A program made the position numbers and the translations under genes. Below, piece after piece: positions 14,137 to 40,381 of a stretch of DNA of 57,909 nucleotides. The notes under the pieces were generated by a model. The model saw nothing but the letters and a program-made list of their open reading frames with translations, was not told the DNA's origin and did no database searches. The first letter of the stretch is position 1, and every line of letters starts with the position of its first letter. Source of the DNA: a virus (lineage: Duplodnaviria > Caudoviricetes); the IMG/VR virus record IMGVR_UViG_3300030430_001633, positions 1 through 57,909 of that record. One strand, 5' to 3'.

Positions 14137-16520
14137 TATTGTCCCCTCTGGTTTTGTTGCTGCCGTTGAATAGCGATCTGCGCTCGCATATTGGCAATAT
14201 CCTCTGTTGAAGCTATGCGCTCACGGGCGATATCAGCATTTTCTTGGCGAGCTTGTGCATCAAGCTGAAGTTTTTGTTGGTCGTTCTGGTTATCCATTTG
14301 CATTTCACGTTCGCGCAATGCCAACTCTTGTTTCTTAATTTCTACCAGCGGGTCACTCTGTGGCTGCGGCGGCTGCTGTTGCTGGAACTCTGCCATAAGC
14401 TGCGCTTGGATTTGTGCAATAGCTGCGGCCTGTGCTTCAGGTGGCTGTTGCTGCATCTGCGGGTTAGTAGCCATTTGTTGTTGATAAACAACTTGCGCCT
14501 TCATACCAATATGCTCGTAGATATGTTTTTCTAACGTCAGCAATATCGGCGGCTGCATTTGCGCTACCCGCGATTGCATATAAGCTAAATGCACAGCGAT
14601 ATGTGCATCATGGTCTTGGTCTGGGAATGCTTGCATTTTACCCTGCCCACCAGCCGCCTGACTGGCAAACTGGTTTTCAGCAGCAGGATCCATCGGCTGT
14701 GGTTGTGGCTCAGGTTTCAAAACCTGCTCAACATTATCTACACCTAATGCTTCGTATACTCGGCGATATGCCTCACGCAAATTGTGCATCTCTGGTGCAG
14801 CGGTAGCTAATTTGAGTTGTTCCTGTGCTAAAACTACCCTTTGTGACATACTGAAGATATTTGGGTCACTCACGGGGATAATATCTACCCGTGCGTCAAA
14901 ATCAGTAGCCTTAATCTGCACATCGGGGCGAACTTCGTATGGATACGGGGTAGGGTCTTCAGCAAATAACCGTGCAAGCATCTTTAATTCTTGTTTCAGG
15001 CTCGTATGCAGCCTTTTATGCACCGCACTTATGATTTTTGCGCCACGTTCTAGTAGTGCGATGGTAGTGCCAACCGGCATCTCTTGTCTGCTATCACCAA
15101 CACCAATATCTGTAGTGCCAATAAATCGTTGGGCAGACTCAATTACAAAACCCATTAGCTGAAACAGTGTGCCAGACGGCTCTTTGTAGGGCAAAGCCAT
15201 CAAACTTGTGCGAATATCGCCTCCAGGGATGTCAATATCCCTAAATTCTCCCGGATGGAGAGGCATTTGTTCATCGGCAATCCGCAACCCGCGAGCTTTA
15301 AATCCTGCTGGCATATTACTCAGCGTTCCAGAGTCAATAAGCTGCCGTAAATTGGCCGTAGCTGTCCTACTCAAGTTTCCAAGCAGGTGAATTAGGCCAA
15401 AACCATAAAAACCAAGTCCTGGAGTGAACTTATATTGAACAAAATGAGGTATTTTCTTCTTCATTTTATCATTTTGTGCAAAATTTCGCCGCACAGACAA
15501 AACTTCGTCACTATCTGCGCTCACTGTGGCGATATAAGGCAGTTTTATGCCTGTTTCTTCATTATCCTCGCCTACATCGGGATATTCTTCAAGGTCTAGA
15601 TAACAATGGCACTCATACAAAGTTACTTCTTCGCTATCACCAGCAGCTTCACGGCCTGATAATTCATCATAAGCCTCGCGCACATCGTCAGTTTCGGTAG
15701 TATTATCGCCTTTTACCTCTAAATCGCGGTAAAAACCGTTTACTTGGAGTTTACGAAGTTCATTTTTTGACATCCGAATGATGTGAGTCACACGTTCTGC
15801 TGATGCCAAATCAGTTGCCGTGTACGGTGCAACAATATCTTCAGCCGGAACAAACTTACTTACCGGCCTACCGAGCACATCATCACGGTAAATTTTCTTA
15901 AAAGCACTGCCACTCAAGCCCAAATAGTAAAGCATCTGGTCATATTCAGGCTCGTATTCTTCCATCTCATACATAATTTGGTAATTCATGTAATCTTGGA
16001 CGCGTTTTGCCTGTGCTTCTACTTCTGGAGTAGCTTCACCAACAATATTTCCGCGCACTGGCCCACCACTGGGCAACATCTCTTTATATGCACCAGCTTG
16101 AAACTGCGTTACAGCTTCATTTAATATGGGGTGGATAACACCAGTAGCACCATCAAACGGTTCAGTACGGTTCTCATACTTCAAACCGAGTAATTCTAAA
16201 CCGTTTGTATAAGTTTCTACCCATTCATCACGGCTAGTCTTATCATCATCAACACTTTGACTCACATAACTAGCAATATCAGCTAATGTATCATCACTCA
16301 GTGAATCTACCAGATTGCCATAAAAATCATCTGGCTCTTCACCCACTGGGCTATCTTTACCAAAAACTACCTCTACACCACCTTCTTCAGACGGCTCAAC
16401 TGTAATTTCTAAAAAATCTGCTTCTTTCTCAAGCAGGGCATCTTCTACACCACTAAAGGTATCATCAGGGGCTTGGATTAAAGAACGGTCAATGTTACTC
16501 GGGCGCGGGTTTGTTGCCAT
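14136..16520 (-). CDS. Portal protein
   Basis: 794 aa directly after TerL; LPSGGPV, LSGSAFKK, PGLGFYGFGL, LRQLIDSGTL; Gln-rich coiled-coil C-terminus. Confidence 0.85.
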   Translation of the reverse strand: MATNPRPSNIDRSLIQAPDDTFSGVEDALLEKEADFLEITVEPSEEGGVEVVFGKDSPVGEEPDDFYGNLVDSLSDDTLADIASYVSQSVDDDKTSRDEWVETYTNGLELLGLKYENRTEPFDGATGVIHPILNEAVTQFQAGAYKEMLPSGGPVRGNIVGEATPEVEAQAKRVQDYMNYQIMYEMEEYEPEYDQMLYYLGLSGSAFKKIYRDDVLGRPVSKFVPAEDIVAPYTATDLASAERVTHIIRMSKNELRKLQVNGFYRDLEVKGDNTTETDDVREAYDELSGREAAGDSEEVTLYECHCYLDLEEYPDVGEDNEETGIKLPYIATVSADSDEVLSVRRNFAQNDKMKKKIPHFVQYKFTPGLGFYGFGLIHLLGNLSRTATANLRQLIDSGTLSNMPAGFKARGLRIADEQMPLHPGEFRDIDIPGGDIRTSLMALPYKEPSGTLFQLMGFVIESAQRFIGTTDIGVGDSRQEMPVGTTIALLERGAKIISAVHKRLHTSLKQELKMLARLFAEDPTPYPYEVRPDVQIKATDFDARVDIIPVSDPNIFSMSQRVVLAQEQLKLATAAPEMHNLREAYRRVYEALGVDNVEQVLKPEPQPQPMDPAAENQFASQAAGGQGKMQAFPDQDHDAHIAVHLAYMQSRVAQMQPPILLTLEKHIYEHIGMKAQVVYQQQMATNPQMQQQPPEAQAAAIAQIQAQLMAEFQQQQPPQPQSDPLVEIKKQELALREREMQMDNQNDQQKLQLDAQARQENADIARERIASTEDIANMRAQIAIQRQQQNQRGQ

Positions 16521-17983
16521 CAGTAATATATCCTTTGCACAGGAACAGCTTCATCTTCTTCATAATCTTCGGGGTGCTGTATAAATCCACCCTCTCTAAA
16601 TCTGCGTAAGGCTTGGGTAACTGTGTCAACGTAATCGTCGTGCTCTCCCGCAGGAAACGCCGCACACTCTTCTACGACTTCTTCTGCCCAACGTGTATCC
16701 GGAGCCCATACTAAACCACTTTCAAACAACGGCGCAATAGAGTTGACTCTTGTAAACTTATCGTTACCTCTACTCGGCGTATAATTCATCACAGGTATAC
16801 CCATATTGCGTAATTCTTGAGTAAGCGGCATACCACTGGCTTTTGCTTCAATCAATACACACTCTGGTTCCCAATACTTATACTCATCTAAAGCTAATCG
16901 CCGTAGCTCGGGGAAGTCCCACCTACCACGTTTAGCATCAACTAGAATAATGTTTGGTGGTCCACCTTCCTCTGGGTGGAAAACACCCCATGTGGTAATC
17001 GCACTGTAATCAGCAGTCTCTTTTTTACTAAACGCTGTATCATAAGACTGCATCACATATTCTAAACGTGGGATATCTTCTTTCTGCCACACCTGCCACC
17101 AATCACGTTTCAGTATCGCGGCAACATCGCCAGTAGGGTTCTGCTGCCATTGGGCTTCCCATTTACCTACTGACAAACTTCCCTTAACAGAAAGCAAATC
17201 TTCCTTTTTCCAAAACTCAGGCCAGAGGGGGTCATCACTCTCAGGCATCAAAGCAGGAAACTCTACTACTTCCCACTTATCTGCCAGTATATCTCTACCC
17301 TGCTGCTTTATCAATTTGCCCGTTAAATCATTCTCTGCCCAACGGGTCATAATTATTACGATAGCACCTCCCGGCTGCAAACGCTGGCGCGGCCCTGATG
17401 TATACCATTCATAAGCATGTTCTAATGCTGTGGGGCTAAGTGCATCTTGTTCACTGTGCGGGTCATCAATAATCAACAAATCCGCTCCACGACCCGTCAC
17501 CGCACCACCTACACCAGCCGCAAAATACTCTCCACCCTTACTAGTCTCCCATCGGCCAGCAGCTTGGCTGTCAGCGCGTAACTCTACTCCACTAAAAATT
17601 TTTGTATATTCTGCAGAGTTCATCAAATTACGCACCTTACGACCAAACCTAAAAGCCAACTCAGCCGTGTGCGTTGTCTGCATTATCTTTAAACGTGGGT
17701 TCTTACCCATCAACCAACTCGGCAATAAGTAACTGCCAAATTCACTCTTAGTATGGCGCGGGGGCATATTCACAATTAACCGCTTTAAATCCCCACTGGC
17801 TATGCGGTTAAACTTCTCAGCCATAATCTTATGGTGGCGGCCATTTATAAACTCAGGCCAAACCATTTTTACATACTGCATAAAATCATTCTGGCTGGCC
17901 TCTGCTTGGCTAATCTCTTTTGCACGGTCTAATAAATGGGCGTACTTCTTTAATTGCTCTTCAGGGACTAGCTGAATGTCCAT
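16520..17983 (-). CDS. terL: Terminase large subunit
   Basis: NMPPRHTKS Walker A, LLIIDDP Walker B, MTRW, SYDTA nuclease, HDDYVD. Confidence 0.95.
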   Translation of the reverse strand: MDIQLVPEEQLKKYAHLLDRAKEISQAEASQNDFMQYVKMVWPEFINGRHHKIMAEKFNRIASGDLKRLIVNMPPRHTKSEFGSYLLPSWLMGKNPRLKIMQTTHTAELAFRFGRKVRNLMNSAEYTKIFSGVELRADSQAAGRWETSKGGEYFAAGVGGAVTGRGADLLIIDDPHSEQDALSPTALEHAYEWYTSGPRQRLQPGGAIVIIMTRWAENDLTGKLIKQQGRDILADKWEVVEFPALMPESDDPLWPEFWKKEDLLSVKGSLSVGKWEAQWQQNPTGDVAAILKRDWWQVWQKEDIPRLEYVMQSYDTAFSKKETADYSAITTWGVFHPEEGGPPNIILVDAKRGRWDFPELRRLALDEYKYWEPECVLIEAKASGMPLTQELRNMGIPVMNYTPSRGNDKFTRVNSIAPLFESGLVWAPDTRWAEEVVEECAAFPAGEHDDYVDTVTQALRRFREGGFIQHPEDYEEDEAVPVQRIYY

Positions 17984-18200
17984 AAACTAAGGTTCCTCAA
18001 TAAAGCGAATATTTTATAAATATATCGAAAATTTTTCAAGGGCAATGAACCTATGACGTTTCAGCATCAACAGGGGTACGTCATCTCGGCTTTTGATCGA
18101 GTAGGGTCAATATCCTGAAACTTTTTTGTTATCACACGATTTGTCCAAAACTTGGCTATACACCGAGGTACAGCCAAGGGGACGGTCTCGCGGGGGCCAC

Positions 18201-18226
18201 AAAAAAAGCCCCGCGCTAGGCGGGGC
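18201..18226 (-). terminator. Intrinsic terminator of GA/TC-free gene
   Basis: gccccgc/gcggggc stem, T7 tail on minus strand. Confidence 0.85.
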
Positions 18227-18265
18227 CAAGGTGGCGGGGGTACCCTAGGCACCCCCGCGCTGCGG

Positions 18266-18709
18266 TTACTTGGTAGGCTGGGGCTGCGCTACCAGTTTAA
18301 CGTAGCCAGTGCCCCATACCGCGCTGCTAGGGCTGTAGCCGCCGTTAAGCAAAGCCAGCAGGCAAATTGGCTTTTTGCTGCTGTGGCCTAGCGGCTTAGC
18401 TGCGGCCAATATTGCGGCAAGGCTATTATTGCCGTTAACACCGTTAAGCAGCCAGCCCTGTATTGTGGCGCGCACGCCACCGGCCTTGCCGTTAAAGCCA
18501 AACGGTACAGGCTGCGGCTGGTCAAGCTGCACGTTTGGCAGCGGCACAACTTGCACATTATGCAGGTTGCCGCCCGCGTGCTGCTGCACAAACTGCCAAA
18601 TGCAAGCGTAGGTTAACTCGTTACCTGTGTGTTGCAGGGTTGCAGCCTTAACGGTGGCTGCTTTAACCGTGGCCTTTTGGGTGGCCTTACCCTTTTTAGC
18701 GTTTTGCAT
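18266..18709 (-). CDS. Hypothetical basic protein, paralogue A (GA/TC-depleted gene; only 1 Asp + 1 Glu)
   Basis: Own promoter, AGAAAGG RBS and terminator; clearly homologous to 19138-19557. Confidence 0.8.
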   Translation of the reverse strand: MQNAKKGKATQKATVKAATVKAATLQHTGNELTYACIWQFVQQHAGGNLHNVQVVPLPNVQLDQPQPVPFGFNGKAGGVRATIQGWLLNGVNGNNSLAAILAAAKPLGHSSKKPICLLALLNGGYSPSSAVWGTGYVKLVAQPQPTK

Positions 18710-18763
18710 TTTACAAGCCTTTCTTTGCTGTAATGCAGGTAAGCGTTATTGCTTACAATTTTT

Positions 18764-18791
18764 ATTATAAGCATTTAAAAGTCAATAACAA
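18764..18791 (-). promoter_or_regulatory. Sigma70-like promoter of paralogue A
   Basis: TTGTTA-N16-TATAAT on minus strand, AT-rich upstream. Confidence 0.55.
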
Positions 18792-19104
18792 CCCCCTAAC
18801 CTAACTTTTTTTAATTTTTATTAACGAGAAAATGCCAAGACATATTAGCATCAGTATCAGTATCCACATCGCGCTGCTCCTTTGTTTGCGTTGCTATTTC
18901 TGTGGCAGTTCAGAACATTCCTGACCAATCCTATTTTGTTCGCCAAAATCCTCTAAAATCTTCACGCTGCGCGACGATGATTGATGACGACCGATGATAC
19001 ATCTAGAGGGACATTGATTGATATATATAGACTTAGGCCTATATATATCGGTCTTCGTCTAGGATGGGAGTCATCATCCTTCCTCCTCAACGATGGTCCT
19101 CGGT

Positions 19105-19130
19105 GAAAGGGGACGCCCGTGGACGTCCCC
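19105..19130 (-). terminator. Probable terminator of paralogue B
   Basis: ggggacg/cgtcccc stem followed by short TTTC on minus strand. Confidence 0.5.
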
Positions 19131-19137
19131 CCGATTG

Positions 19138-19557
19138 TTAACCTTTGACTACCAGCTTGACGAACGGAGTCATCCAGTATTTGCTAGACGGTGAATATCC
19201 ACCGTGCATCAAGGCGTGTAGGCAGACTGGCTTTTTGCGCGAGTGTCCTAATGGTGCTGCCTTATTGAGTGCTGCCTTTAGCGACGTGTCGCCGTCTACA
19301 CCAAACAACATCCAATCTTGGATGGTCTGGCGTACACCACCCGGACGTCCACCATAACCAAAGGGGACGGGCTGCACGGACTCCTTGTCAACATTGTCTA
19401 GCGGCACAATGTGGACGTTCGCCTCGTTACCGCCAGCGTGCTCTTGGACGAATTGCCAGATCTGGTCGTACGAGATCTCTGCATCGGTGACAAGGAGCTC
19501 AGCTGATTTAACGACAGCTTTGGCGGTGGACTTTTTAACAGATTTTTTAGCAGTCAT
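19138..19557 (-). CDS. Hypothetical basic protein, paralogue B (normal Asp/Glu)
   Basis: IWQFVQEHAGGN, QPVPFG, GGVR.TIQ.W, PLGHS.KKP.CL, GGYSPSS shared with paralogue A; AGAAAGGA RBS. Confidence 0.8.
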   Translation of the reverse strand: MTAKKSVKKSTAKAVVKSAELLVTDAEISYDQIWQFVQEHAGGNEANVHIVPLDNVDKESVQPVPFGYGGRPGGVRQTIQDWMLFGVDGDTSLKAALNKAAPLGHSRKKPVCLHALMHGGYSPSSKYWMTPFVKLVVKG

Positions 19558-19606
19558 GACATGTCCTTTCTACGACATCTCTATAAGCACCATTGCTTAT
19601 GAGTAT

Positions 19607-19649
19607 AGAGTAGCACCTAGGATTTTTATTGACAAGTCATTAATTGTCA
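19607..19649 (-). promoter_or_regulatory. Promoter with GAYAA-N8-TTRTC palindrome
   Basis: TGACAA-gtcattaa-TTGTCA at 19630-19649; -10-like TACTCT 17 bp downstream on minus strand. Confidence 0.6.
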
Positions 19650-19769
19650 AAAAACATCAGCGTCATCATCTATCATCATCAGGTCTGCGAATCCTCGTAA
19701 ATCGTCAGCCGACAATGATTGAGGAAGATTGATGAGTTGACTCTGGACAGAAGATGATTGATGACAAAA

Positions 19770-20210
19770 CTAGACTTCGTCCTCCCTTGTGATGGGAGAT
19801 GAGGATGATAAAATATGATTGATGGCCCCCGCCCAATCGTAAGGAATCCCTGAGCTCCAGTCAGGGGACAATGGTCCGTCTTTCTCTGTCTGTCCTGCTA
19901 TCTCCATGGCCCTAGAACCGTGAAATATATTTATAGTTCGGGAAGAAGGATGACCAACCAAGTTCCAGACATTACCAGATTGTCCGCTATATCTTATCTG
20001 CCAAGCAATTTGATGAGGACGAAGTGCGATCTTGTTTAGTGAGTTTAACCTATGGACCTTCAGCTCAAGCCAAAAAGCATAGCCGTCAAGTATGCCGTGC
20101 AAGTCAGGTACTCCAGGACTAGACCAAGACTCTAGGCGCGTCCAAAACACGCCTAGCTCCTTAGTTCCCTCACGGAGATTTTTCCACAATGTGGACTCTG
20201 GTTTACTCAC
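19770..20210 (-). CDS. VRR-NUC / Holliday junction resolvase-like PD-(D/E)XK nuclease
   Basis: E...GVPDL...WLELK...LRPHQIAW. Confidence 0.8.
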   Translation of the reverse strand: MSKPESTLWKNLREGTKELGVFWTRLESWSSPGVPDLHGILDGYAFWLELKVHRLNSLNKIALRPHQIAWQIRYSGQSGNVWNLVGHPSSRTINIFHGSRAMEIAGQTEKDGPLSPDWSSGIPYDWAGAINHILSSSSPITREDEV

Positions 20211-20416
20211 CGCAAACCAAGCCGACGCTGCTCTGCTTTGCTCATCGGAAACGACTCACAGATCTGTTCGCCGTCGCGCGTGATACGGATGTAGTGCTTG
20301 TAGAGATTTGTCTCAGCATACTCAAAAGCCTTTCCCTCATCCTTAAATCCAGCCACATACGCCCAGTCATCTGTAGACGCGTGGTATTTCTCAATGGTGT
20401 AAAATCCTGGTTGCAT
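20207..20416 (-). CDS. Hypothetical early protein
   Basis: CTCGTAGAAAGGAG RBS. Confidence 0.7.
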   Translation of the reverse strand: MQPGFYTIEKYHASTDDWAYVAGFKDEGKAFEYAETNLYKHYIRITRDGEQICESFPMSKAEQRRLGLR

Positions 20417-20452
20417 CTGTCTGCTCCTTTCTACGAGCGTTGTTACAATAAT

Positions 20453-20495
20453 AAAGTAACAAAGGGGACAATCAATGACACCCCCTTTGTTGTCT
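20453..20495 (-). promoter_or_regulatory. Promoter with palindromic box
   Basis: TGACAC-N8-TTGTCT at 20476-20495; TACTTT 17 bp downstream. Confidence 0.5.
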
Positions 20496-20502
20496 TGTTG
20501 TG

Positions 20503-20718
20503 TCAGCTATAAATGCTGTCGGCTACAGACTTACGCATAAACCCGATAATCTCTAGGTTGTCAACGAAGTTGTCCCATCCTTGGTTCCAGTCATCCTTGG
20601 TGTAGGGTGTCCAGTCTGCTGATCTGTCTCGGTTTATTTCTTCCAAGACCTGAGTAAGATCCCAGACAAACCTTTCGCCTGTCTGGGTATCCCGCACAAT
20701 GTAGCGCATATCACTCAT
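20503..20718 (-). CDS. Hypothetical early protein
   Basis: Probable start MSDMRYIV; EEINRDRS..WT.Y motif. Confidence 0.6.
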   Translation of the reverse strand: MSDMRYIVRDTQTGERFVWDLTQVLEEINRDRSADWTPYTKDDWNQGWDNFVDNLEIIGFMRKSVADSIYS

Positions 20719-20902
20719 GTTCATCCAACCTGAACATCTGGATCTGGTTTTGGCACTGGGGACAAGGGGTTTTGTCCTCATCGGTTAGGTGTCTGGCATA
20801 ATTATTGCCGAGCATCGGCATCCCACACAAGGTAGTCGGCTCATTGGGTATCTGCCAATGCTGCTGGCCGAGACGTTTAGTCCACTCATACAACTGTGTC
20901 AT
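20711..20902 (-). CDS. Small Cys/His (Zn-binding) protein
   Basis: H..., TLCG.PMLG, CPQC. Confidence 0.6.
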   Translation of the reverse strand: MTQLYEWTKRLGQQHWQIPNEPTTLCGMPMLGNNYARHLTDEDKTPCPQCQNQIQMFRLDEHE

Positions 20903-21210
20903 TGGAACCTCCCCTGCTCAAGTGCTGCCTCGTTGTTCCAGATAGCTTCGTCAGACTCGTCGTAGCTGTCTTGGTCAACCTGCTCATCCTCGAGAGCGTC
21001 CATGAATTGTATGGCAGCCACGCGGTTGTCGTAATCGCGCTTGGCCTCGTCGTAGCTGTTGTAGATGCGTATGTTACCAGAGATACGCTTGGGAGTAGCA
21101 AGGCCATCCTCGCGGAAAACCATCCAGCCTATGTTGATAGGCGCGTAACGCAGGACTGTTTGTGAGCGTCCCTCGTTAAACACATAAGTAAGGTCTTTGG
21201 GCATCTTCAT
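20899..21210 (-). CDS. Hypothetical early protein
   Basis: Start MKMPKD after AGAAAGGAG RBS. Confidence 0.65.
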   Translation of the reverse strand: MKMPKDLTYVFNEGRSQTVLRYAPINIGWMVFREDGLATPKRISGNIRIYNSYDEAKRDYDNRVAAIQFMDALEDEQVDQDSYDESDEAIWNNEAALEQGRFQ

Positions 21211-21245
21211 TGTGAGCTCCTTTCTGTGAGCGTTGCAATAATTAT

Positions 21246-21297
21246 AAGGTAATACAAGTGACGGCAAGTGATAAGTCTTTTATGCTCACTTGCCGTC
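21246..21297 (-). promoter_or_regulatory. Promoter box embedded in 12-bp inverted repeat
   Basis: TGATAA-N8-TGCTCA at 21269-21288 within gacggcaagtga/tcacttgccgtc. Confidence 0.55.
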
Positions 21298-21304
21298 CTA
21301 TTAA

Positions 21305-21577
21305 TTAGTAGTCACGCAAAAACTGCTTGAGCTCAAACAGGTGGGCGTCCTCGGCAACGGTAGTTGCGTAGGTGCAGTCAACCTTGCAGTCATCATTGTT
21401 AGTGTTTGTAATGGTGACGTGCGTCTCATGCTCAAAACCAACTATGCTTATTTGCCTCAAATCATCAAGGCAGCATAGCACCCTGTCATCAGTGACCTCA
21501 AGGTGTGTTGGCTGTATTGCGTGATAGTCAACCCAGTGGTGCAACACTGCGTCTCGGGTTTGTTCAAAGTAGTTCAT
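21305..21577 (-). CDS. Hypothetical early protein
   Basis: AGAAAGGA RBS, own promoter. Confidence 0.65.
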   Translation of the reverse strand: MNYFEQTRDAVLHHWVDYHAIQPTHLEVTDDRVLCCLDDLRQISIVGFEHETHVTITNTNNDDCKVDCTYATTVAEDAHLFELKQFLRDY

Positions 21578-21609: not shown

Positions 21610-21657
21610 ATTATACTATGCCATAGTTGAGTAAAAATGATAACTCTTTATTTGTCG
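21610..21657 (-). promoter_or_regulatory. Promoter with palindromic box
   Basis: TGATAA-N8-TTGTCG at 21638-21657; TATAAT at 21610-21615 on minus strand. Confidence 0.55.
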
Positions 21658-22184
21658 CTATCTTCATGCTCAATAATCATGTTCCCGTCTGCGACGACAG
21701 CCAGCGCGGGGAACTCTTCCTGAATCTTTTTAATTTCTCGCATCACTTCATCGCGGCTCATCTGGTCAATCTTCCCATGGAGGATTTCTTTACGATCTAT
21801 ATAGATCCCAGCAGCCTGTCCTCTAGACTTCTCGGCAGCGACGGCAGCAGCAAAATTTCCTCCCGTCATGGCAGCGTCACGGATCTCTGCAAGTTTTTTG
21901 ACATGACCTTCAAAGCTCACCTCATACTTACGAGCCAGCTCTTGCTTCAGTTCACGGATCCTCTCCACGACATGGGGATACCGCTGCCCATTGAGTAATT
22001 GTGAGGCAATGGCATGGGCAGACTTCACAGAATATCCAGCGCGGACTGCTGCCTCAGTCTGGGAAATATCCTCACAGACGTAGAGTCGTGCAAATTCTTC
22101 TTGTTTCGGCGTGATGGATTTTTCTTTGCGCGGATTTGCGACGACATCGAGTGTGGGTTTATGAGTCGCTTTTGCCAGAGCCAT
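21648..22184 (-). CDS. terS: Terminase small subunit
   Basis: ITPKQEEFARLY...TEAAVRAGYS...A..IASQLL HTH typical of TerS. Confidence 0.75.
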   Translation of the reverse strand: MALAKATHKPTLDVVANPRKEKSITPKQEEFARLYVCEDISQTEAAVRAGYSVKSAHAIASQLLNGQRYPHVVERIRELKQELARKYEVSFEGHVKKLAEIRDAAMTGGNFAAAVAAEKSRGQAAGIYIDRKEILHGKIDQMSRDEVMREIKKIQEEFPALAVVADGNMIIEHEDSDK

Positions 22185-25956: not shown

Positions 25957-26202
25957 TTAGTCTTCATTTGGAGCAGTCCATTTAGCTCCCACTAGATATC
26001 CGCACTCTCCACAACTGATTTGACCCTCCATGTGAGAAATGAGATTGAACGAGCTAGATCCACAGAGCGAGCAGAGTAGAACCTCTACCTCATGCTCAGT
26101 GACCACTAAATTCTTCTCCTCTATGATGGGGACTTTTTCTCGTCGGATGAAAGGGATGACATTGTCTCTCTCATGAATGGGGGAGTTGGCCTTCTGCGCC
26201 AT
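25957..26202 (-). CDS. Small Zn-ribbon protein (start uncertain)
   Basis: CSLCG...CGECG. Confidence 0.5.
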   Translation of the reverse strand: MAQKANSPIHERDNVIPFIRREKVPIIEEKNLVVTEHEVEVLLCSLCGSSSFNLISHMEGQISCGECGYLVGAKWTAPNED

Positions 26203-26627
26203 ACACTAAACCTCGCTTTTTCATAGATGTAATAATTTTGGTACGCCGTGATTGTATCAGAATGTTTATATTCATCGGGCATAGCTTGATAAGGTTTAGT
26301 AAACCCTCTAGCGTCTAGCCCTATTGGTGGACATCGTAACATTGCGAGAATCCTCCCACAATCATGGTATTTGTCAAAACGATAAGTGTATTCTTTACAA
26401 AGAGCTACACCTAGTTTCCACAACCACCGATAATTTTCTACTGTTTGACCTGCCCAAAGAGTGCAGCCATGTTTCGGGCTGAAGGGTTTATAGGGCGCGT
26501 CACCTTGGTAGCGGTGATGCACACTACTTAACATCTGGCAGGTTTCTAGTGGCATCTTTATAACGTGCTTATCATTGTGCCACTGAGCGCAGATTACTTG
26601 GTCCCAATCGATAATAAATATATTCAT
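26121..26627 (-). CDS. Pyrimidine-dimer DNA glycosylase (T4 endonuclease V-like)
   Basis: MNIF.........A..H.DKHV.KM.LE..QMLS, H.CTLW, L..EY..RF.K.H, QAMPDEYK...AYQNYY. Confidence 0.75.
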   Translation of the reverse strand: MNIFIIDWDQVICAQWHNDKHVIKMPLETCQMLSSVHHRYQGDAPYKPFSPKHGCTLWAGQTVENYRWLWKLGVALCKEYTYRFDKYHDCGRILAMLRCPPIGLDARGFTKPYQAMPDEYKHSDTITAYQNYYIYEKARFSVWRRRPTPPFMRETMSSLSSDEKKSPS

Positions 26628-26730
26628 CCACACCTCACATCAACCCCCTGCACCACAAACTCATTCCGTGCTCGAGCCTGTGGTGCAGAGTTATATAAGG
26701 TATAGCTTACAAGCGGAACGAAGACTGCTC

Positions 26731-27290: not shown

Positions 27291-27815
27291 CTATGGTGTT
27301 AAACTATTATGATTCAGCACCGCCTCTACTGGTTTAAATTCTTCATCACCAGAAAACTTTTCGTAAAGATATTCAACTCCAGTTTCCATAATCCTTTTCA
27401 TCTGTGGGTTGCCCCCAGAGTGACGTTTAGTGTAGAGCACGAGCTCTAACATATCTGCCATTTTAAGTCTTCGTTGCTCTTCTAGGGTGAGCACGAACAC
27501 CAAACCTAACTCTTCTAATACTTTTTGTTCTGCTTTTTCAAAGGCTTGTTTTATTTCAGGGTAATCCCACTTAGCAGTGGCAGGTGTATCACCCAAAATT
27601 AATTCTGGTACGTCGTGATACAACGCAGCCATTATTAATTGCTTGCTGCTATCAGGCCATAGTTGATCTATCAAAACACTTACTGCATATGAATGTGCTC
27701 CCACGGTTTGCCTTTCTGATTGCATCGCAACCGTATGATATCGTAATAAAAACTGTGCATCCCAAACAGCGGATATAGTCTTAATTTTTTGTATTGTGTT
27801 GCATTTCTGTGCCAC
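27291..27815 (-). CDS. HD-domain deoxynucleotide hydrolase (YfbR-like)
   Basis: RYH...QTVGAHSY...ALYHD.PE...GD.P...K...KMADMLE. Confidence 0.8.
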   Translation of the reverse strand: MAQKCNTIQKIKTISAVWDAQFLLRYHTVAMQSERQTVGAHSYAVSVLIDQLWPDSSKQLIMAALYHDVPELILGDTPATAKWDYPEIKQAFEKAEQKVLEELGLVFVLTLEEQRRLKMADMLELVLYTKRHSGGNPQMKRIMETGVEYLYEKFSGDEEFKPVEAVLNHNSLTP

Positions 27816-29866: not shown

Positions 29867-30200
29867 TCTTTACCCTCAGCGACATCTCAGCTTCTACGAG
29901 GAAAAGATACCTGCGTAAATCCCGTATGTCGTCTAGTATACCTTCTTCACGGGTATCTTTAGATATAGCAGCAAACACATCGTAATGGTGTTCGTTTACT
30001 TGCTTTTCTAGCCTGTCCCACTTACGCGCCAGCATCATAAACGCACCCACACCGCCGCGCTGTTTCCAGCTATCGCCGTAAGATTGCTCAGCTTCTTGGA
30101 GCTTTACTGTATCCAAACTAGCAAGAACATCTACTTGCCGGATAATTTCACTGGGTTGGTCTTTCATTTTATCTTTCATGTATTGCTCGTGCCTTTTCAC
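29844..30200 (-). CDS. MazG-like all-alpha nucleotide-modification-associated protein
   Basis: K......YGDSW..RG..G......RKWDRL, D...DL..YL.L; next to the TS homologue. Confidence 0.6.
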   Translation of the reverse strand: MKRHEQYMKDKMKDQPSEIIRQVDVLASLDTVKLQEAEQSYGDSWKQRGGVGAFMMLARKWDRLEKQVNEHHYDVFAAISKDTREEGILDDIRDLRRYLFLVEAEMSLRVKNESGKRK

Positions 30201-31174
30201 CTCAATCTCCTATCTAGCCATTCCATACAAGCCTTACGCCATGCACGGTCACCTATAGAATGAGCATGGTAATATGCGCTTGTATAATTTTTTGCTTTCC
30301 AGCAACGCCAAGATAATCTCATCTGGGCGCAGGTATCACCTAAGTAAGTGTTCTCATATTCCAGCCTATCTATATCTTCAAACCATTCTAGTAATTCTTT
30401 GTCAAAGGTAGAAGGCTCATCAATCAAAGCAGGTGGCGTATATTTCAAGCCGTCTTCACTCAAAGTAAGGTAAGGCTCATATTGCGGCTGCATACCGTCT
30501 AGTTTTTTAAGCACATCTACATATGCGTGTAGATTATTACTGAACTGATAATAGTTACCTATGCCGTATCCAAGCATCCCTGCCATGTATTCTAACAAGA
30601 CAGACATATGCACAGCATTTGCACCAAACGCTCCCCAGATCATATCGTTACTGCGATTGCACACAGTCATATGCAAATCTTCATCGCGCTCCCAAAACAT
30701 AATCTGCGTATTACAGGGATAATCTTTACCATCGTTAGTTTCAACTAAGTCTTGGCGTGGATCCCACATACCAACCACAACTCTGCGATCATTAGGATAA
30801 GTGCTCAACCTAAACAATGCTTTTTGTAACTGATCTTTGCCGAACCAGTTACGCCACCTATATCCATATGCACCGTGAAAAGTCACCCCATCATCGCTGT
30901 AGGTGTTCATCCTGCCGTTAAACTGGCTAATCCAATCCACATCGTTACGCCCTGCCAACATCCACAAGCTCTCCATCAAGTGGAAATACGGGTTAGCATC
31001 GCGCTCATGGTAAAACAGCACTCGCTCACGGCTGTGGGTGTAAGTAGTTGTCACAGGTGTAGGGAACTCTAAGGCAGCACCGTTACGAGTTTGCACCTCT
31101 ACACCACTGCTTTCAATACCTTGCTTGGCTAGATAAAGGGCCTCACTTACCCCACGAGCATTAATTGATTGCAT
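30197..31174 (-). CDS. Thymidylate synthase homologue, probable dUMP hydroxymethylase
   Basis: NPYFHLMESLWMLAGRND, GAYG.R, D.PC (catalytic Cys), RSND..WG..GAN (Asn favours dUMP), NLHAY. Confidence 0.8.
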   Translation of the reverse strand: MQSINARGVSEALYLAKQGIESSGVEVQTRNGAALEFPTPVTTTYTHSRERVLFYHERDANPYFHLMESLWMLAGRNDVDWISQFNGRMNTYSDDGVTFHGAYGYRWRNWFGKDQLQKALFRLSTYPNDRRVVVGMWDPRQDLVETNDGKDYPCNTQIMFWERDEDLHMTVCNRSNDMIWGAFGANAVHMSVLLEYMAGMLGYGIGNYYQFSNNLHAYVDVLKKLDGMQPQYEPYLTLSEDGLKYTPPALIDEPSTFDKELLEWFEDIDRLEYENTYLGDTCAQMRLSWRCWKAKNYTSAYYHAHSIGDRAWRKACMEWLDRRLR

Positions 31175-31232: not shown

Positions 31233-32507
31233 CTAAGATGCTCGAGCGGGGTCTGCAGACCTAATGCCGAAAAACTCGAGGTTCTTGTGGCACCTTTGCA
31301 TAGCCAATGTGTCAGGAGTACCTACGCTTAATCCATTCGTATCCATTACTAAGTCAACATACTCTTGTGCTACATTCCGCATATCAAAACGCTTTAGGAG
31401 TTCTAGGTTGTTTTCCTTTATCCTGAGCCACTGGTTCTTATCATGTATGGCTTTATCAATAATATCAGCAAACAGGAAAGGCTGAGCTTCAGCAGGTATT
31501 TGGATGAAGTTTTGCCCTGCCTTAAATATCTCACTGTTTTTCATGCCCCAATCTGTAGCGACAGGTACCGCACCACAGATGATTGCTTCTACAGTAGTCC
31601 GGTTAAAATGTGCGCCGAACTTAGAATACTTTTTACTGTAACTCGGGTCAATCTGTAGCTTGACTGTTTTTAGTATCTCAAACACTTTGTCATTAGTTAC
31701 CGTACCTAAATGCTCCATACCAAAACGCTTGGCTCTGTCCCATATGCGGTCGCCAGTTTCATCAAAGTATTTTGGTTTGCACTTATCTGGGCTAGTCATG
31801 TAGCGGTACTCAATGCCTTCTCCACCAATGAGCTTGCGCTCACTGTTGGTCATATATCTTATGGCACGAACTAATGTGTCTACACGCTTCCAAGCCTTAA
31901 ATACTTGGATAGCTGCAAACCCATCACGTTTTTCAAAGTCAGTCCAACCATCGGCACCGCTTATATCAAAAGGGTTAACAATCAACTTGCGCGGTATGGG
32001 CAGCATGTCGCCAGAGTGCATGGCAGATTCATGAACGCAGACTGCCGCATGAAAGTTGTGCTTTTGGTAGATCAAATGCGGGTAAAGCTCAGGCAGGTTA
32101 CCATCATGAATGATGGCTATGTTTTTACTGCCGTGGTCGTACAAATCTAGCCAATCTTGGACATCCTTATTTTCCTTATTCAAGGTTGGCACAGGGATGT
32201 GCCACAGCACGGCGTCATACTTGCTGCACTTCTGCTTAAACATATCCCTTTGGTATTTTGATTTGTACGGAACTTTAGGCATTCCTACCCAACCCCTAGC
32301 TTGATGGTGGGGGTATCCGGTGCCTACCTTACGGTATTGATCAAAGTTTTTAGGAGGTGTAAACCTACCGATTATTTTTTCTTTAGGCACGAGCATGGTA
32401 AAGTCAACCTCGTGGCCTAATTCTTTTAAACCTTTTGCAAGATACTCTGCGTGGTTAATTATCCCACCATAATCCTGTATCTGATACATTGTCATAAGAA
32501 ACTTCAT
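31233..32507 (-). CDS. GT-B fold glycosyltransferase
   Basis: GGIINH...LAKGLKELGHEV, IIHD, WKRVD.LVRA, DPS...FN.T.VEAI..G.VPV.TD. Confidence 0.8.
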   Translation of the reverse strand: MKFLMTMYQIQDYGGIINHAEYLAKGLKELGHEVDFTMLVPKEKIIGRFTPPKNFDQYRKVGTGYPHHQARGWVGMPKVPYKSKYQRDMFKQKCSKYDAVLWHIPVPTLNKENKDVQDWLDLYDHGSKNIAIIHDGNLPELYPHLIYQKHNFHAAVCVHESAMHSGDMLPIPRKLIVNPFDISGADGWTDFEKRDGFAAIQVFKAWKRVDTLVRAIRYMTNSERKLIGGEGIEYRYMTSPDKCKPKYFDETGDRIWDRAKRFGMEHLGTVTNDKVFEILKTVKLQIDPSYSKKYSKFGAHFNRTTVEAIICGAVPVATDWGMKNSEIFKAGQNFIQIPAEAQPFLFADIIDKAIHDKNQWLRIKENNLELLKRFDMRNVAQEYVDLVMDTNGLSVGTPDTLAMQRCHKNLEFFGIRSADPARAS

Positions 32508-33400
32508 TCTACGGCTCCTTGTGGTACTTCATTAAATAAGTCTGGCTTGTAGACGCTACGCGGTCGCCCTTGGCCTAACCTTACACGTTCGTACTTGTCC
32601 CATTCGCATAAGCTATGTTCAATAGTACGCATATCCACTTGATCAAGTGGCACATGGGGCATGATGTAAAACGGGGCCGTTGATAACAACTTACGCATGA
32701 AGTCATTTGCCACAGCTTGCGTCATACCTTTTTTAAGAGGGTTACCTAATATTCGGTTTAGTCCTCGTATAGCTCCCGGCCCAGCGTTCGCCCAGCTATT
32801 ACGGTCTTTTGCCGATGATAGTACAGGCGTGTAATTGAGGTCCGTAACGACCTCGTATGACATAAAACCTCCCCCTCCCCATCCCCGATAGGCACCCATC
32901 GCCTCATGTAAGGCTTGGAGCGACTGCGTGGTTTGGGCAATCTGCGCCAACGCTTCTTTGTTTTCCCAGATAGGGGCAAGAAAATGGTCAACCACTACCT
33001 CTGACTTTGGTAACTTGAGTCCTTGGTTAGTGATTATATATGCACCAGTAAACGTCCGTAAGCCCTGTTCAATGCGAGAGTTTATCAGGTCTTTAGTAAA
33101 TGTCGGGTTAAACTCTTGCGACCAGCCGTGTTGCTCGGCAAACTCACTGGTGCCAATCATACGAAACAAACAACAATTAAATATAATCTCACCGTGGGGA
33201 CGGTTGTGGTTAGGGTCTGTCCAGTTTTCCCGCATCCACACAGTAACCCTATCGTTCTCACGGAACGGGTTTGTAAATTTAAACTCTTGTAAGATGGGGT
33301 CATCTGTCCATGGAGCAGAAGCACCCGACCTCCTGCGTAGGTAGATCGAGTGCCTCTCATTAATCCACCCGAAGTAACTTTCTATAGCTTCGGTGAGCAT
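32504..33400 (-). CDS. 5-hmdU DNA kinase-like protein (aGPT-Pplase1 family)
   Basis: ERH.IY.RR..G...PWTDDPILQ.FKFTN.FRE.DR.T, FTGAY, FM.YE...DL.Y, GPGA.RGL, IEH.LCE.DKY.R. Confidence 0.8.
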   Translation of the reverse strand: MLTEAIESYFGWINERHSIYLRRRSGASAPWTDDPILQEFKFTNPFRENDRVTVWMRENWTDPNHNRPHGEIIFNCCLFRMIGTSEFAEQHGWSQEFNPTFTKDLINSRIEQGLRTFTGAYIITNQGLKLPKSEVVVDHFLAPIWENKEALAQIAQTTQSLQALHEAMGAYRGWGGGGFMSYEVVTDLNYTPVLSSAKDRNSWANAGPGAIRGLNRILGNPLKKGMTQAVANDFMRKLLSTAPFYIMPHVPLDQVDMRTIEHSLCEWDKYERVRLGQGRPRSVYKPDLFNEVPQGAVE

Positions 33401-38580: not shown

Positions 38581-39384
38581 CTACATTATGCCGTCACCAG
38601 CATCGTCTTGCATTTTGGCAGATTTATCTTCTTTGACCTGCACTTCACCTGCTTGGATAGATTCAGCAAACTTCATAGCAGTTTCAAACAGGGTGGCATC
38701 GTTAGGATCTTCTGGGTTAAGGCCACGCTCCCGCGTAACATCGTACCCAAACCACGAACCTTTATCGTTTTGCTCTGGCACGGTAACCAGCCGATATACT
38801 TGCGACATTAGCGGCAACACATACAAACCGTTCTCGCCTTGCGCGGTTAGCGACTGCGCTTGGGTCATCCACTTACGCGCCTTTTTAAGTTGCGTAGAAG
38901 ACATCGTAATCAGAGCACGTTGCCAGCCCATATCTGGGTGCGCGAACAGCACGAAAAACTGCGCGGTATTACTCAGTAGGTTACCATTGGGTAATACATC
39001 CTGCCCTACGTCATTCCGCGTAGTGGTGCCTACAATAGGATTAGTGGTCTCATAGGATTCTACATATCCCCCGCCTTGCTCCCGTGGAGTCCACTCAACG
39101 AACCTACGGTTATAGTGGCAAGGTATCACCAACAAACCCTGTTCTCCGTCGTACACCTCGTTTAGCACGGTATTAAACAGCATCCCCGCTTCGGCACCCT
39201 CTACATACTTACCGTCACGCTTATTTACTTGCGGACTAAGCTGGGCCAATACGCGGATAAACGGGATTGACAGGTCTTCGGATGTTACCTCGCTAAACCC
39301 TTTATTACCGAACTGCTCAAAACCACCGAACACGGCGGGTGCGTTGTTTTCTTTAACAACGACTTCTTTCTTTGCTTCTGCCAT
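38581..39384 (-). CDS. Putative ssDNA-binding protein
   Basis: DL.IP....LQ..SPQV, EW.PR, M.STQLKK.RKW, N.KG.W.G; acidic tail; replication context. Confidence 0.55.
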   Translation of the reverse strand: MAEAKKEVVVKENNAPAVFGGFEQFGNKGFSEVTSEDLSIPFIRVLAQLSPQVNKRDGKYVEGAEAGMLFNTVLNEVYDGEQGLLVIPCHYNRRFVEWTPREQGGGYVESYETTNPIVGTTTRNDVGQDVLPNGNLLSNTAQFFVLFAHPDMGWQRALITMSSTQLKKARKWMTQAQSLTAQGENGLYVLPLMSQVYRLVTVPEQNDKGSWFGYDVTRERGLNPEDPNDATLFETAMKFAESIQAGEVQVKEDKSAKMQDDAGDGIM

Positions 39385-39386
39385 GA

Positions 39387-39944
39387 TTATTTCCTCTTCT
39401 GTATCTTGGCTTTTTCACCGATGAATATACCGAACAAGTCATGTGGGATATTCAAACCCTGTTCAGTTTTTTCACGCACCCATGCTTTCAGGGTCATAGG
39501 CTCTACCCACTTTTTTGTATTGACGGGCATACCTCGGCCAGCCAACTCACTTGCAAACTGTTCAGCTTGCTCTTCCTGACCACGCACAAAATTAGTGGCT
39601 ACTTGGTTTTTAATCAGGTCGCCAAAATCGTTATCAACCAACCAAGTAAACGCCTCATCAGCTCTGTCTTTTGGTATGGACGCGCTGTAAAACGTGCTTA
39701 CACTAATGCTTGAACCATCATCCAGTTTGAGTTCTGAGATGTTGTGCTCAGCCATTGCCGCTGGGAGTTGATCTTCAGCAATAGCCTTTAGATCACTCTT
39801 TGCAGTTTTCAGTTCTGCCTCTAAGTCAGCTACCCTTTGCTCAACCTGCAACTGCATTTGAGCTAGTTTACTAACCTGTGACAAACCTGTTTCGTTTACA
39901 GTGCTGAGCTTTTTAGCAGCACTTTCAAAGTCAACCATCACCAC
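39387..39944 (-). CDS. Conserved replication-module protein
   Basis: LP.AM.E, AF.WL..N..GDLIKN, V.P.TLKAWVRE. Confidence 0.65.
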   Translation of the reverse strand: MVMVDFESAAKKLSTVNETGLSQVSKLAQMQLQVEQRVADLEAELKTAKSDLKAIAEDQLPAAMAEHNISELKLDDGSSISVSTFYSASIPKDRADEAFTWLVDNDFGDLIKNQVATNFVRGQEEQAEQFASELAGRGMPVNTKKWVEPMTLKAWVREKTEQGLNIPHDLFGIFIGEKAKIQKRK

Positions 39945-40260
39945 CTCCTGGACGGAAATTAAGGTCAGCAGACAATGGGAAATATTTACCCTCTTGCCTG
40001 TCCCACTTCAGCATTTTAAACCGCCCACCATTGGCACGAGAGGCCATAGCAGCAGCTAAAGCAATAGCCGCTGGATCCCCTGCCAGTAGAAGGTAGTCAT
40101 CATCGGTGAACTTACCGAGCTTTCTACCCATACGCCTTATAGTAGGCTGGGTAGAATAACTGGCTTGTTCCCCTGCGGGAAGCAGTATTTCTATATCGCC
40201 GAAGCTCGTAGCATCTGTGATGTCACGGCCCCGCATCTCCTGTGTTATAAATACAGTCAT
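39931..40260 (-). CDS. Hypothetical protein
   Basis: Probable start MTVFITQE after AGAAAGG; DYLLL.GDP, LKWDR. Confidence 0.65.
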   Translation of the reverse strand: MTVFITQEMRGRDITDATSFGDIEILLPAGEQASYSTQPTIRRMGRKLGKFTDDDYLLLAGDPAAIALAAAMASRANGGRFKMLKWDRQEGKYFPLSADLNFRPGGGDG

Positions 40261-40381
40261 CTCATGCCTTTCTCCACATGGGTTGTAGTATGAAACTAGG
40301 TTTAACATATAGCGGCGTAGATTGCTTGTCTAGTTTGGTCAGTAATTTATCCGCTATATCCAATATATTTTCTACTTTGTT

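Follow-up and report, generated by a model that had tools for sequence, protein, structure and literature searches.

Two paralogous genes, here called copy A and copy B, sit between the large and small terminase genes of an uncultured marine phage known from the virus record IMGVR_UViG_3300030430_001633; the whole 57,909-bp record, estimated to be 98% complete, is referred to here as the window. Copy A and its predicted transcription signals have been purged of almost every TC dinucleotide (GA on the other strand), and copy B is of ordinary composition. Judged by comparison with related records, this is a conserved cassette, running from promoter to terminator, exchangeable, purged of a single dinucleotide, and accompanied by an ordinary twin, in a marine phage clade with 5-hydroxymethyldeoxyuridine (5-hmdU) kinase chemistry. 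The observation itself is real and strongly non-random; the mechanism behind it is something that we infer.

Extent of the purge and its action on DNA

The purged zone and the two genes are positioned as follows (pLDDT, predicted local distance difference test score of the protein model):

18189..18825, no strand assigned: GA/TC-poor zone of 637 bp, with 4 GA/TC on either strand versus ~70 expected (dinucleotide counts)
18266..18709, minus strand: copy A, 147 amino acids with 1 Asp and 1 Glu; predicted fold as in B, pLDDT 88.6
19138..19557, minus strand: copy B, 139 amino acids with 7 Asp and 5 Glu; 50 GA/TC, a normal content; model pLDDT 90.3

Of the four residual GA/TC (at 18522, 18618, 18722, and 18782), two open the Asp and the Glu codon, one belongs to the ribosome-binding site, and the last is a GA within the promoter spacer. 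The longest GA/TC-free gaps in the zone measure 334, 104, and 96 bp, whereas no gap elsewhere in the 57,909 bases exceeds 50 bp, and the lowest count in any 400-bp segment is 1, at 18201-18600, versus 47.8 expected. Across the window, the ratio of observed to expected GA/TC is 0.88 (standard deviation 0.16). No other dinucleotide has a comparable gap in the window, nor does the window contain a further GA/TC-free zone, its remaining gaps (up to 50 bp) fitting the overall rate.

Within the coding sequence of A, no TC stands at any codon phase, and the only GA are the opening letters of the Asp and the Glu codon. Ser is written AGC in all six cases (B uses TCN in nine of ten), and the codons ATC, TTC, GTC, CTC, and GGA are missing. 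When A's protein was recoded 5000 times with the codon usage of the phage, 26.8 +/- 4.1 GA/TC were obtained, with a minimum of 15, versus the 2 observed; the 50 of copy B are slightly above its own recoding expectation of 42.5. The 193 nt of non-coding flank in the zone hold 2 GA/TC. The target of selection is hence the nucleotide sequence, and the shortage of Asp and Glu follows from it: the GA/TC purge acts on DNA, on both strands, is kept by selection, and drives Asp and Glu (GAN codons) out of the A protein, which is left with AGC alone for Ser.

A preliminary description of this DNA had pointed to two open reading frames (ORFs) of 147 and 139 amino acids that align over their length. Its coordinates and lengths match ours, and the two proteins share 79 of 135 positions (59% identity; expectation value, E, 2e-56). 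A recount of acidic residues (7 Asp and 5 Glu in B, 1 and 1 in A) reproduces its totals of 12 and 2, and the replacements that it listed from B to A (QEH to QQH, NEA to NLH, LDN to LPN, QDW to QGW, and GVDGD to GVNGN) are all present in the alignment. The terminator stems differ as it said, A having GGCCCCGC...GCGGGGC followed by a T run, and the hairpin after B being GGGGACG...CGTCCCC. Its core proposal, that selection at the DNA level had overridden the protein of A and left B ordinary, also stands, with synonymous sites, codon junctions, and the 193-nt flank all purged.

As far as predicted signals can tell, the purged zone is one transcription unit, untranscribed promoter DNA included. The elements of this unit, of the B unit, and of the DNA between and before them are:

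18764..18791, minus strand: sigma-70-like promoter of the A unit, TTGTTA-16-TATAAT, 10 of 12 matches, with one GA in the spacer
18739..18756, minus strand: 5'-leader hairpin of A, shortly past the predicted transcript start, GUAAGC..GCUUAC (z = -2.7)
18719..18727, minus strand: ribosome-binding site of A, AAAGAAAGG, holding one tolerated GA
18234..18258, minus strand: first G/C-rich hairpin past the A stop codon, GA/TC-free and kept in relatives (read from sequence)
18197..18227, minus strand: predicted intrinsic terminator of the A unit, GGCCCCGC..GCGGGGC (18227-18207) and T run
18801..18869, minus strand: hydrophobic micro-ORF of 22 amino acids, MWILILMLICLGIFSLIKIKKS, with a ribosome-binding site of its own, situated between B and A
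18973..19088, no strand assigned: TC-rich repeats of type TCATCAATCATCYTC, upstream of the micro-ORF and A unit
19110..19131, minus strand: hairpin after B, GGGGACG..CGTCCCC, containing GA/TC (read from sequence)
19622..19650, minus strand: sigma-70-like promoter of the B unit, TTGACA-17-AAAAAT
19666..19825, no strand assigned: TC-rich repeats of type TCATCAATCATCYTC, upstream of the B unit

The zone begins ~35 bp upstream of the -35 hexamer and ~70 bp upstream of the predicted transcription start, and ends within ~10-15 bp of the terminator T run, where the first GA/TC appears. The B unit has the layout of the A unit in ordinary composition (promoter, leader hairpin, a ribosome-binding site GTAGAAAGG, and terminal hairpin), so the duplication took in the entire unit.

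Among relatives, the stem letters of the leader hairpin vary by lineage with pairing kept (GUAAGC/GCUUAC, GUAGCC/GGCUAC, and CCCC/GGGG; loci L005, L007, L024, L049, L081, and L098), and the B leader carries a similar hairpin. Peptides of 18-24 amino acids are found at the place of the micro-ORF in loci L005, L024, L027, and L049. The micro-ORF lies inside the purged zone in L005, L007, L009, L022, L024, L028, and L049 and mostly outside it in the window. Repeats of the TCATCAATCATCYTC type number 13 in the window versus 3.3 expected, nearly all in the two clusters before the B unit and before the micro-ORF plus A unit. Each packs five TC into 15 nt of one strand, and possible roles are those of operator, recombination site, or landing pad for a protein that reads a DNA mark.

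Recurrence, allele classes, and exchange among related phages

A database search for copy B gave 222 homologues with E <= 0.001 out of 228 candidates, largely from marine sources, and scans of IMG/VR yielded 27 loci with A, 80 with B, and 80 with a profile of acid-free relatives. Whether A/B pairs recur, a question posed in the preliminary description, can be answered in the affirmative: a normal copy upstream is joined by a second, A-type copy 0.3-2.2 kb downstream in all 43 B-seeded loci that reach far enough (at least 2.5 kb downstream), and the 11 B-seeded loci without an A-type copy are all truncated. The distinct alleles fall into these classes:

A, purged: 33 distinct alleles, 0-3 GA/TC; 20 of 33 without Asp and Glu
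A, intermediate: 19 distinct alleles, 4-20 GA/TC; Asp+Glu 0-7
A, normal: 27 distinct alleles, more than 20 GA/TC; Asp+Glu 0-12
B: 81 distinct alleles, all normal, 34-72 GA/TC; Asp+Glu 8-16

Purged alleles extend down to 43-56% protein identity to the A of the window, and the purge is retained across alleles that differ by more than 1 synonymous substitution per site (dS). Their flanks are purged as well, over ~80-100 bp downstream and 120-200 bp or more upstream, and one contig (G019) has 628 bp with zero GA/TC. Genomes with a normal A have no GA/TC gap above 69 bp, and no other dinucleotide is purged in the normal A alleles. Nor are homologues poor in Asp and Glu regardless of DNA context, as the preliminary description had allowed: the acid-free homologues for which there is DNA are the downstream twin, in a GA/TC-free unit.

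Copy B is the more conserved of the two. Among A alleles, the ratio of nonsynonymous to synonymous substitution rates (dN/dS) is 0.07-0.17, and among B alleles it is 0.02-0.16. A thus still codes for a selected protein and, by this measure, is a working gene under protein selection. A tree separates A and B into two clades with support of 100/100, which indicates that the A/B duplication is older than these phages. Normal alleles of loci L020 and L021 are basal in the A tree, and a long branch leads to a mostly purged clade in which less purged alleles are nested: L012 (7 GA/TC), L016 (17, with no GA and no Asp or Glu), and L013 and L017 (28-32). These nested alleles look like secondary lapses of the purge, a picture that recombination blurs. 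Three A alleles (L016, L053, and L090) have zero sense-strand GA and no Asp or Glu, yet hold 16-23 TC, as might result if the purge had lapsed halfway or if the template strand alone were constrained; L054 and L102 have the opposite bias, with 10-11 GA versus 4-5 TC.

These strand biases bear on whether the constraint could lie in RNA, the A transcript having to lack both GA and UC, for instance to escape an endoribonuclease or to keep a fold. The 3' edge of the zone is the predicted transcript end, the purged stretch upstream holds the micro-ORF in several relatives and could belong to a longer transcript, and the alleles of L016, L053, and L090 lack GA in the sense strand alone. Such a constraint, however, requires two dinucleotides to be avoided in one RNA where one step on duplex DNA explains both, and it leaves aside the predicted promoter and ~35-80 bp upstream of it, which are not transcribed and are purged too, as well as the opposite bias of L054 and L102. 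We therefore consider selection on RNA unlikely.

Cytosine deaminases of TC specificity deplete exactly TC/GA, and the purge might be the mutational footprint of hypermutation by such an enzyme (TC to TT, GA to AA), with no selection on that step. Two of the A/B replacements quoted above are indeed Asp to Asn. At the 11 columns that are mostly acidic in B, however, the purged A alleles have T/V, G/K, G/P/A, A/K, C/Q/L, L/I, P/A, N/Q/K, N/G, N/K, and N/S, so that most replacements are neither Asp to Asn nor Glu to Lys, with T, G, P, A, L, Q, C, and K standing in for the acids. A footprint is also at odds with a purge that persists over dS above 1 at dN/dS near 0.1, with sharp zone edges at the transcription unit, and with AA/TT not consistently raised in purged alleles, and we rate this explanation as very unlikely.

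A search of 1.84 billion cluster representatives places the family in 75 clusters at E <= 0.001, some of them represented by fragments; 29 of these 75 representatives have 0 or 1 Asp+Glu, and most of the others have 5-12%. The acid-free state is thus common, as would be expected if selection favored an acid-free, more basic product for its own sake or if the gene had been imported from a GA/TC-poor donor genome. Either origin is hardly credible, given that the purge extends to synonymous sites, to the junctions between codons, and to the non-coding flanks and that the cassette is the sole GA/TC-poor zone in each of the eight fetched related contigs classed as purged or intermediate, no GA/TC-poor donor genome having been seen. 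Because of the promoter purge, the substitution spectrum, and the synonymous evidence, the RNA-level, mutational, and protein-only readings all rank well below the two considered in the next section, in which the reader of the dinucleotide is the phage's own DNA modification or another DNA-acting factor.

By sequence comparison, the A cassette behaves as an exchangeable accessory module between otherwise near-identical phages. Loci L012 (A with 7 GA/TC) and L018 (A with 31) are 95-100% identical in 100-bp windows on both sides and only 62-73% identical over ~800 bp, from just past B to the A terminator; the left edge of the exchanged block coincides with a pair of TC-dense repeats of type TCATCAATCATCCTC, the repeats that cluster before the two units in the window. 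In the same genome pairs, dS is far higher for A than for B (L012/L013, 1.78 vs 0.19; L005/L007, 1.02 vs 0.49), which indicates that the A alleles are older than their backbones. One contig of 60,123 bp (G017, carrying L064) begins and ends inside near-identical copies of the A gene, which probably means that the assembly of a circularly permuted genome broke at the variable cassette and not that the gene is present a third time. Entry of the cassette into the cell ahead of the other DNA found no support: in G024, the one related contig classed as having direct terminal repeats, the two genes are ~18-19 kb away from the contig start, and the A allele is normal.

Natural variants were compared over positions 16500-21500 in assembled contigs from four public marine metagenome runs. 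Fourteen of the 40 differing positions listed, out of 543, fall in the A coding sequence; 12 of these 14 leave GA/TC unchanged, and the other two are adjacent, occur together in the same contigs, and jointly create none. Since GA/TC would be created by 29% of the possible transitions in this coding sequence and by 33% of all possible substitutions, 13 events without a new GA/TC have a probability of ~0.005-0.012 if independent, a figure that is indicative only, the differences being linked in haplotypes. The variants are thereby indicative of an A zone that is kept clean of GA/TC by ongoing selection.

Neither a tblastn search of B against 50,697 GenBank phage records nor a search of bacterial and archaeal genome contigs returned a relative, so there is no cultured system yet.

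Candidate readers of the dinucleotide

The price of the purge is the loss of nearly all Asp and Glu and of every TCN Ser codon from a conserved protein, together with the upkeep of a second gene copy. So costly a purge of one unit implies that TC/GA on duplex DNA is read by something in the infected cell and that the reading harms at least one gene. In restriction-site avoidance, selection rids the DNA of a short word that some DNA-acting enzyme recognizes. The A unit is alike in that one short word is selected against and under-represented (4 vs ~70 in 637 bp). Unlike the 4-8 bp recognition sites that are avoided genome-wide, however, the word here is a non-palindromic dinucleotide, GA/TC whatever its neighbors, confined to one 640-bp unit, and its removal rewrites the amino-acid composition of a protein. 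Vertebrate CpG islands, promoter-linked stretches free of a dinucleotide-targeted DNA mark, offer an analogy only: there the dinucleotide is kept and protected from the enzyme, whereas the A unit deletes the dinucleotide itself, coding region included. A full-text literature search, with supplementary files outside its reach, found no publication of such a dinucleotide-free island.

The likeliest reading, though one that we hold tentatively, is that the A unit is a TC-free stretch escaping the phage's own thymine hypermodification. The genes concerned are:

32504..33400, minus strand: 5-hmdU DNA kinase (PF18723, E 5.8e-50, 273 of 281 profile positions)
31233..32507, minus strand: GT1-type glycosyltransferase, adjoining the kinase
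30197..31174, minus strand: thymidylate-synthase (TS) homologue, presumed dUMP hydroxymethylase (PF00303, E 1e-20; phrog_5131, E 1.6e-103)
27291..27815, minus strand: HD / YfbR-like deoxynucleotidase

The window thus contains the 5-hmdU DNA kinase of the 5-HMUDK pathway. The enzyme is 35% identical to the kinase region of phage M6 over 95% of its length (tblastn, E 2e-43), and, besides the window, 17 of the 25 related records examined have it, among them all 11 that are at least 90% complete, the misses being fragments. The TS homologue is of a type in which sequence alone cannot separate hydroxymethylase from methylase activity. Pfam matches to aGPT-Pplase or an amino-acid:DNA transferase were absent among the 30 window ORFs scanned, and six-frame searches of the window returned neither TGT/DpdA (PF01702; controls matched in 14 of 14 genomes) nor DNA methyltransferases of the N6/N4 (PF01555), D12 (PF02086), and C5 (PF00145) classes. 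With no TGT/DpdA and no match to these three methyltransferase families, the thymine kit is the only phage-encoded candidate reader found. In one genome (G016, the contig of L049, 91% complete), no ORF matches the GT1 glycosyltransferase that adjoins the kinase in the other 13 genomes.

In such a scheme, copy A is a duplicate of B's whole transcription unit that has been purged of TC (GA on the other strand). The phage would replace thymine by 5-hydroxymethyluracil via its TS-like hydroxymethylase, and, after replication, the 5-hmdU DNA kinase and downstream enzymes would hypermodify the base in 5'-TC-3'. A unit without TC on either strand would stay free of the bulky mark, and host RNA polymerase and any DNA-binding regulators would find unmarked DNA there, irrespective of how far the surrounding genome had been modified. 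A would then be a second supply of the small basic protein, independent of modification state, carried in a cassette that behaves as an exchangeable accessory module and in which some lineages may have let the purge lapse.

Comparison with characterized phages lends this scheme a context. Like the hypermodification systems of phages M6, ViI, and phiW-14 and Acinetobacter phage SH-Ab 15599, the window has a PF18723 kinase and a presumed TS-like hydroxymethylase. In M6, gp54 is the kinase that phosphorylates 5-hydroxymethyluracil in DNA, according to the accessible part of the report (PMC8989533). The portions available of two further papers indicate that DNA resistance patterns of M6, ViI, and phiW-14 point to TG or TC as the modified context (PMC6449724) and that the diaminopropane mark of phage 15599 is placed mainly at TG and less at TC (PMC13458397). 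This published preference for TG/TC, so far as those portions describe it (PMC6449724, PMC13458397), can be compared with the avoidance of TC in the A unit, where TC only is avoided and not TG. A sequence-encoded exemption from the mark, as proposed for the window, is not described for these phages in the accessible text of the three papers (PMC6449724, PMC13458397, PMC8989533). The downstream enzymes also differ from those of M6-type systems: a GT1 glycosyltransferase adjoins the kinase in the window, and no amino-acid transferase was recognized there. A phage DNA-modifying enzyme can use a GA context, as the 7-deazaguanine system (DpdA) of phage CAjan illustrates, with preQ0 contexts given as GA and GGC in the part of the report available (PMC7544227); unlike CAjan, the window has no TGT/DpdA homologue in the six-frame search.

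Several observations weigh against an escape from the phage's own mark. The argument is circular at one point, the TC specificity of the kinase being deduced only from the purge itself. Twenty-seven of the 79 distinct A alleles are unpurged, and the kinase is present in five of five long contigs with a normal A as in five of five with a purged A. The kinases of genomes G003 (A with 7 GA/TC) and G012 (A with 33) are 93% identical, and the kinase, glycosyltransferase, and TS-like proteins of G003 are 89-96% identical to those of the normal-A genomes G012, G013, and G015. None of the ORF families is shared by every purged genome while missing from every normal one, nor is any distributed the opposite way. 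All other phage genes, early-looking replication genes included, are normal in GA/TC, so the mark cannot simply block transcription. Phage M6, which has the characterized kinase, differs from the window in having no island free of any dinucleotide. The exchange of alleles and the coexistence of purged and normal forms fit just as well with a variable host-side agent that reads TC/GA. An 81-amino-acid antisense ORF that seemed specific to normal genomes is probably spurious.

Such an agent is the second explanation to be weighed, and a possible one, if less probable than escape from the phage's own mark: another DNA-acting factor in the infected cell, be it a host defense enzyme or a phage nuclease, would read GA/TC, with the A product as a counter-measure. 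Candidates are a nickase or nuclease of short motif, a TC-specific single-stranded DNA deaminase, and an ADP-ribosyltransferase of the DarT type, and the purged unit would serve as a target-free cassette whose expression could go on during an attack on the remaining phage DNA. Purged and normal alleles do occur in near-identical backbones (flanks 95-100%, cassette 62-73%), the much higher dS of A than of B (1.78 vs 0.19) agrees with selection that varies with the host and bears on an exchangeable accessory module, the purge goes with no particular phage gene, and the A unit is predicted to have a strong promoter, a leader hairpin, and a strong terminator. No such factor came to light, however, and keeping 640 bp intact does not save a genome that suffers cuts or blocks at other sites, barring reversible damage. 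The A/B protein, moreover, matches no known anti-defense or enzyme family in Pfam or PHROG, and every near-complete twin-bearing genome has the thymine kit, which would be a simpler TC reader.

A bolder elaboration of the hypermodification reading, to which we give little credence, makes the twins a sequence-encoded epigenetic switch. The TC mark would alter the reading of ordinary genes, B included, in the course of DNA maturation, and A would be readable in both DNA states, so that both would be supplied with one and the same protein; in the boldest form, the A/B protein would itself read or handle the mark, the TCATCAATCATCYTC repeats would be its landing sites, and A would be immune to its own product. 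Were this logic correct, purged units would let the sequence context of an unknown modification be read off the genome sequence alone.

Discussion of phage DNA hypermodification usually treats it as blanket protection from host nucleases. Should the phage's own hypermodification prove to be the reader, the purge would predict the specificity of the enzyme (TC) from sequence alone, hypermodification would carry a cost in gene expression or regulation that phages must engineer around, and A and B would form a natural isogenic pair of templates for measuring that cost.

The A/B protein and the neighboring genes

The A/B protein consists of a mixed helix/strand domain of ~110 residues behind a disordered, basic, Lys/Ala-rich tail. 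AlphaFold models of B (pLDDT 90.3, predicted template modeling score, pTM, 0.82) and A (pLDDT 88.6, pTM 0.80) share the order of helices and strands, showing at the level of these models that the A product keeps the predicted fold of B. Nearly invariant are Pro65, Phe66, Gly74, Arg76, and Gly119-Gly120 of an LNGGYSPSS motif.

Neither Pfam nor PHROG has a family for A or B; 52 family members gave only single chance-level Pfam matches at E <= 0.1. PDB sequences gave no match to the family profile at E <= 1, and Foldseek searches of PDB and BFVD returned nothing at E <= 0.001. The ESM Atlas contributed unnamed viral clusters only, the nearest named family, DUF3489, scoring 0.75, which is chance level. 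A wide VIA-align search found weak matches only (best Z 5.2), among which many winged-helix proteins (Fur, MecI/BlaI, TFE-alpha, and the winged-helix domains of MCM and ORC) aligned weakly, with Z 3.0-3.8, over residues ~57-139. The A/B protein may plausibly bind nucleic acid. None of these family and fold searches bears on the roles of immediate-early regulator or anti-defense protein that the preliminary description had proposed.

The genes of the window are nearly all on the minus strand. Apart from the twins and the thymine kit, the following may be noted:

16520-17983: large terminase, with DNA 64-67% identical to Pelagibacter phages HTVC027P and HTVC023P and two others
21648-22184: small terminase
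27291..27815, minus strand: HD / YfbR-like deoxynucleotidase

The window also codes for a family-A DNA polymerase, an archaeo-eukaryotic-type (AEP) primase, and UvrD and SNF2 helicases; no phage RNA polymerase was found in Pfam and PHROG scans of its large ORFs. Three further features were kept in all 14 genomes compared. Directly upstream of B, a 146-amino-acid ORF (19770-20210, minus strand) without a Pfam family matches phrog_2165, annotated 'DNA helicase', and part of an endonuclease PHROG, and may be a small nuclease domain beside the terminase genes. A 170-amino-acid ORF (26121-26633, minus strand) matches phrog_624 (E 5.5e-56) and, below threshold, the pyrimidine-dimer DNA glycosylase family PF03013 (E 0.0012), which makes it a candidate DNA-base transferase or glycosylase of the modification pathway. 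Finally, three consecutive ORFs (38581-40308, minus strand) match the families of Pam3 gp34, gp33, and gp32 (E 7e-69, 7e-32, and 4e-25), which take their name from a Pseudanabaena cyanophage.

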